A stretch of 56,156 bases of DNA from an uncultured Lachnospiraceae bacterium. GTDB taxonomy: Bacteria; Bacillota; Clostridia; Lachnospirales; Lachnospiraceae. Position 1 is the stretch's first letter. Every line of letters starts with the position of its first letter. Both the position numbers and the translations under genes were made by a program. Positions 17,237-18,776 of this stretch are shown piece by piece. The stretch is from contig CAUUFM010000001.1 in the NCBI GenBank assembly GCA_963544505.1, positions 1 through 56,156 of the forward strand. Direction: 5' to 3'. Under the pieces are notes generated by a model. It worked only from the letters and a program-made list of their open reading frames with translations. It ran no database searches and had not been told where the DNA came from.

Positions 17237-18205
17237 CTAAATTCTTTTTGATTTTAAATATTTTATATAATTTAATGTTTCTATAGCTTCTTCTTTGCTC
17301 ATAGTTGCTGTTTCTTCAATAATTCTTTGATTAAAGTTAACATCAGAATCTGTAGTAAGAGGTATATCATTTTGTTGAATAAAATATGCAGAAATAGAAC
17401 TCGTTAAAAATCCGATTGTACCAATTCCGGTAAGCATTAAGATTGCAGCTATAAACCTACCTATTTGTGTGGCAGGAGAAATATCGCCATATCCGACAGT
17501 AGTAGCCGTAACGAAAGCCCACCAAATAGAATCTTGAAAAGTATTTACAGTTTGTCCTTTTTCAGAAAAATAAATGCCTATAGCTCCTAAAAATATCACA
17601 ATTGCAGCAAAGAAAAAAGAATAAATAAGTCCGTGAGAATTTAATATTATTTTTAGTTTTTTGCGAAACCTTGCAATTACCCCTAACAGTCTAAATATTT
17701 TACTCATTTTGCCTAATTTCACCAATTTTAATACTTTGAAGAGTTTTACAATTCTTAAAGCCTTAAATAAGGAATTGAAAGGAATAATTGCTATCACATC
17801 AGGAATATTATTTTTCAAAAAAATTTTTTTGTTTTTAGAAAATAAAAGTCTTGAAAAGTAATCAATAATAAAGATGTAAGTAATAACATTATCTATAAAA
17901 GATAATGCAATATTTTTTTCTAAATTTATTTTTTCTAAAATATCTATAATAGCAATTATTACAGAAGTTAATGCAAGTATTGTAAAAATTATTTCATAAA
18001 TCACTTTTACTTTTGTAGGAATTTCAAATTGCTTTTTTTCCATTATTTTTTCTCTTATACTTTCTGAAATTGATGATTTTAACCTTTTTTTATTTCTAAA
18101 TTCTTTTGCTTTTTCATTTACAAAAAATTTCCGTACCAAGGTTTTATCCCGCGTCTGATTCTTTCGCAGAAGAGGCAGGCGATTCCCGTTCTTTTTCTTT
18201 GTCAA
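17237..18205 (-). CDS. voltage-gated K+ channel (6-TM, Kv/KvAP-like)
   Basis: Selectivity filter TATTVGYGD. S4-like LRIVKLFKVLKLVKLGK with K/R at every third position. Six hydrophobic segments. Start uncertain: TTG at 18205 overlaps the repressor gene, and an alternative ATG lies at 18043. Confidence 0.8.
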   Translation of the reverse strand: MTKKKNGNRLPLLRKNQTRDKTLVRKFFVNEKAKEFRNKKRLKSSISESIREKIMEKKQFEIPTKVKVIYEIIFTILALTSVIIAIIDILEKINLEKNIALSFIDNVITYIFIIDYFSRLLFSKNKKIFLKNNIPDVIAIIPFNSLFKALRIVKLFKVLKLVKLGKMSKIFRLLGVIARFRKKLKIILNSHGLIYSFFFAAIVIFLGAIGIYFSEKGQTVNTFQDSIWWAFVTATTVGYGDISPATQIGRFIAAILMLTGIGTIGFLTSSISAYFIQQNDIPLTTDSDVNFNQRIIEETATMSKEEAIETLNYIKYLKSKRI

Positions 18206-18776
18206 ATTCAGCTTCCGCCATTTTCAAAAATTTCTCTTTTTCCGTCAATTCAGAATAAATGTCATTACTTTTGTCACCTACGCTTTCAAAACCGACATTT
18301 GGGAAAGCCTCATTGAAAATAACAGCAGCTTTTCCATACAAATCACTTTTTATTGCATTAGGAGCTGATGAATTGACAATAATATCATTTATTCCATTGA
18401 TAGCTTTTTGTTTGTTTTCAGCCATAACACTATCAGCCAATTCCCTAATAAAGAGATTAAAAGCTTCTCTTCTTTTGGAATCCATTTCAATATAAGTTCT
18501 CAAAATGGTTTGGCTTAATGTATCTAAAGGCATTTCATTAATTATTTTTCCAATAATCGAATCATTATCCTCCAAAAACATATCGCCGACACCTGTACGA
18601 AGCCAATCTTCATTTACGCTAAATTCTCTACATATAGCAAGAAACATTTGGTCCGTAAGGTTATTTCTTCCACTTTCTATAAGAGAAATAGCAGTTTTTT
18701 TAACCCCTAACCGTTCTCCAAATTTTTCCATAGTGAGGTTTAGTGCTTTTCTTAATTTTTTTACTTGTTCATTCAC
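18144..18776 (-). CDS. CI-like XRE-family HTH repressor
   Basis: N-terminal LTMEKFGERLGVKKTAISLIESGRNNLT HTH. GTG start 8 nt after AGGAGG. No S24 peptidase motifs seen. Divergent from the early operon. Confidence 0.8.
   Translation of the reverse strand: MNEQVKKLRKALNLTMEKFGERLGVKKTAISLIESGRNNLTDQMFLAICREFSVNEDWLRTGVGDMFLEDNDSIIGKIINEMPLDTLSQTILRTYIEMDSKRREAFNLFIRELADSVMAENKQKAINGINDIIVNSSAPNAIKSDLYGKAAVIFNEAFPNVGFESVGDKSNDIYSELTEKEKFLKMAEAEFDKEKERESPASSAKESDAG

Follow-up and report, generated by a model that had tools for sequence, protein, structure and literature searches.

A voltage-gated K+ channel gene behind the repressor gene of a Lachnospiraceae prophage: a recurrent accessory gene of phage lysogeny modules with a possible role in lysogen protection

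Why does a temperate phage encode a complete voltage-gated K+ (Kv) channel directly behind its repressor gene? This question is raised by a 56,156-nt stretch of contig CAUUFM010000001.1 (assembly GCA_963544505.1) from an uncultured Lachnospiraceae bacterium, referred to here as the window, in which a channel gene follows the putative immunity-repressor gene of a prophage on the same strand (Table 1). An initial annotation of this DNA had proposed a membrane effector of the immunity region resembling the Rex system of phage lambda. According to our analysis the repressor-channel architecture is real, recurrent and selected, and the channel gene is an accessory gene of the lysogeny module with an unstudied type of effector.

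Judged by its sequence, the gene product is an intact and complete channel of the KvAP/KvLm type. It matches the Pfam families Ion_trans (3e-18, residues 15-214) and Ion_trans_2 (3e-16), was aligned over its full length to KvAP (PDB 6uwm, 2e-25, residues 17-264) and matches the KvLm pore (PDB 4h33, 2e-21). In the PHROGs database it falls into phrog_7872 (1.3e-68), a family labelled 'unknown function'. The selectivity filter TVGYGD (residues 182-187) was invariant in 101 of the 102 homologs compared. The S4 segment carries a basic residue at every third position (R97-K100-K103-K106-K109-K112-K115-R118), giving a run of eight, or of nine when the next in-register residue is counted, and conserved acidic countercharges are found in S1-S3 (D34, D51, D61, D82). 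Filter, S4 charges and countercharges are all retained across 25 homologs, and the residues F58, Y62 and R65 are invariant among homologs, too.

The AlphaFold2 (AF2) monomer model (pLDDT 78, pTM 0.39) was used for helix positions only. Its helices comprise residues 10-35, 45-68, 72-86, 89-109, 114-161, 169-181 and 193-226, as expected for S1-S6. All top matches in a Foldseek search with this model were Kv channels (probability 1.0), with a TM-score of about 0.3 that is low because the monomer model misplaces the domains. The viral structural matches (BFVD) consisted of Kcv-type pore-only channels alone, covering just the pore part. The complete channel with six transmembrane segments (6-TM), S4 voltage sensor and TVGYGD filter that had been read from the letters of the window is thus confirmed by Pfam, the PDB alignments and the AF2 helices. 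We infer tetramer formation, K+ selectivity and gating polarity for the encoded protein. Among the phage-linked copies, 38 of 39 have an S4 charge run of 6-10 residues. A hyper-charged S4 as a phage-specific trait was considered and rejected, as close cellular relatives exhibit 7-9 charges as well; being common to these relatives, the long charge run is a trait of the clade and not an adaptation of the phage.

The gene upstream of the channel gene encodes a candidate repressor and occupies the classic immunity-repressor position. Candidates for a leftward, lysogenic and a rightward, early lytic promoter are situated back to back, the early and late phage genes lie to the right, and the repressor-channel block sits at the junction where transcription diverges. 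The -35 region 'ttattgacttttatttt' of the leftward candidate is kept in a related phage, contig L005. The repressor gene starts with GTG at 18776, preceded by a strong GGAGG. Its product matches HTH_3 (1.3e-12) and HTH_19 (4e-11) in Pfam, both helix-turn-helix (HTH) matches in the N-terminal part, and the transcriptional regulator family phrog_8 (6e-19, residues 5-185). PDB matches, e.g. to 434 Cro, are restricted to the HTH, none extending past residue 66, and the C-terminal part is without a recognisable domain. Neither Pfam nor NCBIfam revealed a Peptidase_S24 domain in the repressor, and an M78 domain is absent likewise. Because the S24 autocleavage domain is missing, the protein is not CI-like in the strict lambda sense: of the label 'CI-type repressor' given to it in the initial annotation, the Cro/C1-type HTH at divergent promoter candidates stands, but not the S24 domain.

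The two genes had also been thought to overlap possibly, with no terminator between them. In the window they are separated by a spacer of 100 nt; a true overlap is found in the close relative L005, where the repressor gene continues through the spacer stretch and shares 20 nt with the start of the channel gene. An apparent overlap of 62 nt results only if the channel open reading frame is extended to an upstream TTG (18205). Such a TTG-extended frame, or a repressor-channel fusion, was ruled out by the lengths of the homologs and by insertions and deletions in two further relatives. Close channel homologs all comprise 250-270 amino acids (aa) and start where ATG 18043 aligns. In the contigs L169 and L170 (independent metagenomic samples, channel 98% identical), insertions and deletions in the spacer disrupt the extended frame, so that the spacer is non-coding. 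In the phages Dulem virus 33 and JNU_P5, the channel gene overlaps the preceding gene by 4 nt.

The second part of that claim agrees with our result, as neither a terminator-like nor a good promoter site was found between repressor and channel (18044-18143). RNA folding of the spacer compared with shuffled sequence gave no structure beyond chance (z = 0.02). Beyond the channel stop we detected a strong hairpin (Table 1) that probably forms the 3' end of the repressor-channel unit or delimits its cassette. With this hairpin and, behind it, a perfect promoter belonging to the next cassette, repressor and channel seem to form a bicistronic unit, and co-transcription of the channel with the repressor appears likely. 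The channel would then be expressed in the lysogen. Since the ribosome-binding site in front of it is weak (AAGAGA), the lysogen should make only a small amount of channel.

Comparison with the three related contigs links the channel to the phage. In L005 the channel is 79% identical, the divergent promoter region is the same and the repressor is homologous; here the order is repressor, channel, a large serine recombinase of 450 aa and host genes. L169 and L170 possess the same repressor-channel pair, followed by a KilA-N gene, and in the window the pair is followed by the genes of a DUF4160/DUF2442 pair. As repressor and channel stay linked in all three relatives while the downstream neighbour changes, the channel is phage-borne and not a host gene. 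Gene order and phage linkage thus bear out that the pair lies inside a prophage, at its immunity region.

By tblastn, members of the channel family were also found in the deposited genomes of Dulem virus 33, of an Enterococcus phage and of two phages of Lactobacillus, PLE2 and JNU_P5; homologous phage genes on record show 31-42% identity over the aligned parts. Records of 6-9 kb designated 'Listeria phage' matched, too, and may be host DNA. All three annotated genomes (PLE2, JNU_P5, Dulem virus 33) have the channel gene on the strand of the repressor, between an HTH regulator and the integrase; the regulator is followed by an ImmA-like metalloprotease in PLE2 and by a small open reading frame in JNU_P5. 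The channel is annotated as 'ion transporter' in PLE2 (gp27) and JNU_P5 and as 'Ion transport protein' in Dulem virus 33. The PLE2 channel (L001, 4953-5732) has a divergent C-terminal tail, …ITQSEYDAKKRQLLRL, resembling a SHOCT-type motif. In place of this tail, the clostridial copies exhibit a conserved C-terminal helix, …E..E.L.YI.F.KSKR. Judging from these sequences, members of the channel family seem able to exchange the cytoplasmic tail.

An alignment-based scan of IMG/VR yielded 162 viral contigs with relatives of the channel, of which the best 80 fell into 27 clusters at 85% identity. The alignment was needed for this search, a scan with the single sequence having yielded only one partial relative. 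Gene maps were made with local profiles and checked with Pfam. A co-oriented HTH gene was located up to three genes upstream of the channel in about 22 of the 27 clusters (directly adjacent in 8-9), an integrase up to four genes downstream in 21 (17 tyrosine, 4 serine), and both in 19. In seven of the 27, the channel gene directly abuts or slightly overlaps the co-oriented gene upstream. Seven of the upstream regulators in this set are S24-containing CI/LexA types, and an M78 ImmA-type protease is present at five channel loci. The layout described for the window hence recurs in deposited phages as well as in IMG/VR clusters, and the channel is very probably a phage accessory Kv gene within the lysogeny module.

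How did phages come by this gene, and is it maintained? In a species-dereplicated genome sample, representing the best 80 of more than 555 matches, 6 of 77 loci showed the pattern regulator-channel-integrase, 5 showed it in part and 66 appeared chromosomal. Among these best 80 matches, the nearest genome relatives of the channel belong to metagenome-assembled genomes of Clostridia (up to 54% identity). A look-up for records identical to the window's channel protein gave no match. The closest non-phage relative, with 58% identity, is located between an ABC transporter and smpB/suf genes. In a neighbour-joining tree, which is rough and carries no support values, phage-linked and cellular channels are interleaved, with phage copies near the channels of related hosts. 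This suggests several transfers between host and phage, i.e. repeated capture. Between the phage copies of the window and L005, the channel genes exhibit a ratio of nonsynonymous to synonymous substitutions (dN/dS) of 0.15 at a dS of 0.72; the repressor diverged much more (dN 0.38). The low ratio indicates that the channel has been kept by selection while phage-borne, and by this measure the phage copies are under purifying selection.

Table 1. Features of the window around the repressor-channel pair
Feature	Position	Strand	Basis
Voltage-gated K+ channel gene, 268 aa; S1-S4 sensor, S5-P-S6 pore and C-terminal helical tail	17237..18043	-	
Immunity-repressor candidate, XRE/Cro-C1-type HTH, 210 aa	18144..18776	-	Pfam, PHROG
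Spacer, 100 nt, repressor stop 18144 to channel ATG 18043	18044..18143	-	
Strong 12-bp hairpin without U-tract, about 80 nt past channel stop	17126..17154	-	region z = -2.4
Leftward (lysogenic) promoter candidate, TTGACT-17-TATCAT, upstream of repressor	18800..18828	-	consensus scan
Divergent rightward (early lytic) promoter candidate, perfect TTGACA-17-TATAAT	18859..18887	+	consensus scan
Accessory cassette with own promoter	16330..17085	-	
DhiT-like DUF4160 toxin (type II)	16779-17030	-	NCBIfam NF048015, 101.4 bits vs cut-off 100
DUF2442 partner with phrog_2329 domain	16330-16752	-	
Perfect sigma-70 consensus promoter of DUF4160/DUF2442 cassette	17085..17057	-	
20-nt motif AAGAGATATACCGCARAATA, five copies	16269-16288, 17099-17118, 19360-19379, 19737-19756, 20074-20093	-, -, +, +, +	
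Genes typical of a conjugative element: TraG/VirB4-like ATPase, ArdC-like protein, 1878-aa fusion	1-14.4 kb	+	
UPF0236-family transposase	14581-15984		Pfam
Short block holding repressor and channel	16.3-18.8 kb	-	
Phage genome	18.9 to ~53 kb	+	

The surroundings of the pair within the window, which is of low GC content (27-46%), are listed in Table 1. The plus-strand phage genome comprises genes for a C5 methylase, a gpA-type terminase, a lambda-type portal and the major capsid protein E as well as for sheath, tape measure and an endolysin with CW_7 repeat. Host-like ABC-transporter genes follow beyond 53.2 kb. Homology to L005 ends at 16207, exactly where the ATG of the L005 integrase would fall, and no remnant of a serine integrase was detected in the window by tblastn. 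The prophage has thus lost its integrase, probably by a rearrangement linked to the adjacent insertion sequence (IS) and conjugative-element DNA. An Rfam scan of 15.9-20.2 kb gave no match.

The DUF4160/DUF2442 cassette downstream of the channel is bracketed by a 76-nt direct repeat (16268-16343 and 17098-17173, 92% identity). Each repeat includes a 12-bp hairpin and the 20-nt motif AAGAGATATACCGCARAATA; the hairpin behind the channel gene has an identical copy at 16296-16324. In the relatives the repeat element is situated directly after the channel (L005) or after the KilA-N gene (L169, L170), and it looks like a recombination hotspot for swapping accessory cassettes. The five copies of AAGAGATATACCGCARAATA in the window compare with 0.03 expected by chance. 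They are always intergenic and, on either arm of the immunity region, follow the local direction of transcription; most are preceded by a hairpin that is rich in GC and varies in sequence from copy to copy. In L005 a diverged version occurs ahead of the integrase. The motif could act in regulation, mark the boundary of a cassette or be associated with terminators.

Three further observations concern the flanking DNA and the early region. The ABC-transporter ATPase to the right of the prophage (53188-53979, +) lacks the Walker-A part, as the Pfam ABC_tran match begins with profile position 34 at residue 4 of the protein; the phage may have its attachment site within this gene. Two early paralogues (19400-19711 and 20161-20511, +) are almost identical in their N-terminal halves (MATFRNVDKFNEALQDEI... 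and ...MGTFRNVGKFNEALQDEI...) and showed no Pfam or PHROG match. The 1878-aa fusion (7200-12836, +) combines a methyltransferase-like N-terminal part with a SNF2/helicase C-terminal part; PADLOC revealed similarity to DrmD (DISARM) and orphan methylases, and the fusion is typical cargo of conjugative elements.

What might the channel do in the lysogen? Between regulator and integrase, channel phages also carry AbiD (twice, 4e-50), PD-Lambda-1 (9e-76), PDC-S22, PDC-S57 and, in one phage, an Ltp homolog. Because this accessory slot of temperate Bacillota phages elsewhere holds genes for superinfection exclusion and abortive infection and the channel has AbiD, PD-Lambda-1 and Ltp as co-residents, we favour a role in the protection of the lysogen. 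The channel, as the second gene of a leftward lysogeny unit read from the repressor promoter, would be inserted into the lysogen membrane as a tetramer whose S4 sensor holds the pore shut at resting potential. A superinfecting phage perturbing the membrane would open the pore. K+ would flow down its gradient, clamping the potential close to that of K+ equilibrium and draining K+ and turgor from the cell, and this loss or clamp might hinder the incoming phage in its DNA entry or its development. We propose an anti-phage role tentatively, giving it somewhat less than an even chance. Still more doubtful, though conceivable, is the specific version in which the channel acts as a single-protein device, with S4 detecting the perturbation by the incoming phage and the K+ pore serving as effector.

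Several points weigh against lysogen protection. No PADLOC model matches the channel, and the family is mainly cellular, 66 of the 77 sampled species loci being without defence context. In the IMG/VR clusters we found no consistent second gene beside the channel, and there is no conserved partner, since the neighbours vary (ImmA-like, AbiD, KilA-N, DhiT or integrase). A K+-selective pore repolarises toward the K+ equilibrium and is no obvious suicide effector. Furthermore, gating polarity is not readable from the sequence: a channel open at rest would mediate K+ uptake instead, and a weak, sub-threshold match to the hyperpolarisation-activated MVP family was obtained (41.6 bits vs a cut-off of 300). 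The prophage of the window appears to be stranded or truncated and may be defective. In the literature we found neither a functional study nor a role hypothesis for a phage-borne Kv channel; an Oenococcus sicerae prophage channel (ORF4) has been noted as a 'salient feature' (PMC9867325). With this remark, PHROG 7872 and the PLE2 and JNU_P5 annotations on record, the initial statement that no described system of this architecture was known holds for function only.

Lysogenic conversion might account for the gene as well, the channel aiding host fitness by K+ uptake or release, buffering of the membrane potential, osmotic or acid tolerance or electrical signalling in the community, without direct effect on other phages. 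The mainly cellular distribution of the family, the location of the 58%-identical non-phage relative among housekeeping genes, the missing defence model and the weak similarity to a hyperpolarisation-activated, uptake-type family are in line with this explanation, and the phage copies retain every functional residue of the cellular channels. However, Gram-positive temperate phages usually carry fitness or virulence cargo beyond the lysis genes, whereas the slot between repressor and integrase is typically devoted to exclusion or immunity, and the co-residents of this slot are AbiD, PD-Lambda-1 and Ltp. We regard a contribution to host fitness as possible but on the unlikely side. Alternatively, the channel might serve the phage's own cycle, being made from the leftward promoter early in infection or at induction and either tuning the membrane potential, and with it holin triggering and the timing of lysis, or conditioning the cell while lysogeny is established. 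Leftward immunity operons are transcribed early after infection, too, holin triggering depends on membrane energisation, and Kcv of chloroviruses is an example of a K+ channel with which a virus can aid its own entry. But tailed phages have no membrane that could carry a channel into the cell. Moreover, the gene lies near the integrase in most phages, on the strand opposite to the replication, morphogenesis and lysis genes and far from the holin/endolysin region, which makes a function in the phage cycle improbable.

It is harder still to see the channel as a neutral passenger, i.e. a host gene picked up by imprecise excision or recombination near the integrase, with no selected role. The channel gene is part of the module, with repressor and integrase on either side, rather than located beyond the attachment site, and it recurs in at least 20 lineages of divergent phages that differ in repressor type and use either tyrosine or serine integrases. 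In addition, it shows a dN/dS of 0.15 and is better conserved than the adjoining repressor. Against this, the interleaving of phage and cellular copies in the distance tree and a slot that is a recombination hotspot with repeat-flanked cassettes would suit chance capture, which we nevertheless take to be quite improbable. A last alternative, named in the initial annotation as the case speaking against its own proposal, is that the channel is a host chromosomal gene merely abutting the prophage. For the window itself this has some basis, as it contains no integrase and has IS and conjugative-element genes on the left, on account of which the left prophage border cannot be defined within it. The channel, however, accompanies the repressor in each of the three relatives (L005, L169, L170), in L005 with integrase and host genes beyond the channel, and deposited complete phage genomes carry it, so that we consider this case scarcely credible.

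Among known systems, KvAP from Aeropyrum pernix (PDB 1orq, 6uwm) and KvLm from Listeria monocytogenes (Lmo2059; 4h33) have the same 6-TM layout, filter, S4 repeat and countercharges as the window channel. Both open on depolarisation; KvLm, a proven depolarisation-activated K+ channel (PMC2151562), has only 3 of 8 conserved sensor charges (PMC2585861). Unlike both, the window channel is phage-borne in a putative lysogeny operon, and its S4 carries 8-9 charges as opposed to the 3 of 8 in KvLm.

The position of the gene resembles that of rexA-rexB behind cI in phage lambda, i.e. a membrane-acting gene directly downstream of the repressor, on the same strand and with no terminator. In contrast to lambda, where cytoplasmic RexA and 4-TM RexB form two components, the window has one 6-TM Kv gene, without sequence or fold relation to RexA or RexB, and its repressor lacks the S24 domain of lambda CI. 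The built-in voltage sensor of the channel replaces the cytoplasmic sensor protein. From the analogy drawn in the initial annotation there thus remains the position, but a RexA-like partner and homology to RexB are missing and the system consists of a single gene. The Rex mechanism, a collapse of the membrane potential that is triggered by infection and aborts growth of the phage, is not directly transferable, since a K+-selective pore repolarises rather than depolarises.

The exclusion proteins Ltp (Streptococcus thermophilus phage TP-J34) and Sie2009 share with the channel the slot between integrase and repressor and a membrane location of the product. The ltp gene belongs to the lysogeny module, where it is transcribed from the prophage (PMC3952083). 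Small lipoproteins or single-pass proteins, the Ltp and Sie products block DNA injection by binding to the tape-measure protein, whereas the product considered here is a 6-TM channel, in which the Pfam scan revealed no Lipoprotein_Ltp domain. Kcv and related channels of chloroviruses and other giant viruses are likewise virus-encoded K+ channels with a canonical filter. They are minimal 2-TM pores without sensor that are located in the virion membrane and act at entry, whereas the window channel possesses a full S1-S4, belongs to a tailed temperate phage and lies in a putative lysogeny operon. Depolarisation driven by Kcv has been linked to the exclusion of further infecting viruses. In the Hailong system, HalA together with a nucleotidyltransferase partner is an ion-conducting anti-phage effector (PMC13586616). 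The resemblance to the channel lies in the concept that mobile elements or phage hotspots encode an effector which conducts ions across the membrane. Hailong, however, comprises two genes and is gated by nucleotides or DNA, whereas the window channel has no homology to it, no partner gene and no PADLOC match.

To our knowledge, little has been learned about what Kv channels do physiologically in bacteria since KvAP and KvLm came into use as structural models. Temperate phages appear to have acquired this family repeatedly, and they keep it under purifying selection in the only slot set aside for genes expressed in the lysogen. Phage-borne copies in culturable hosts (Lactobacillus casei BL23 with PLE2, Enterococcus) offer a testable setting for Kv function. 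If the channel indeed acts against phages, it would represent a new class of effector, namely an ion-selective channel that senses voltage and acts on its own. As a single-protein device it would be common among temperate Bacillota phages at the position between repressor and integrase and would provide the first clear physiological role of a prokaryotic voltage-gated K+ channel. If the role is instead a physiological one, phages would rewire the membrane electrics of their hosts. Either outcome would give PHROG 7872 a function.

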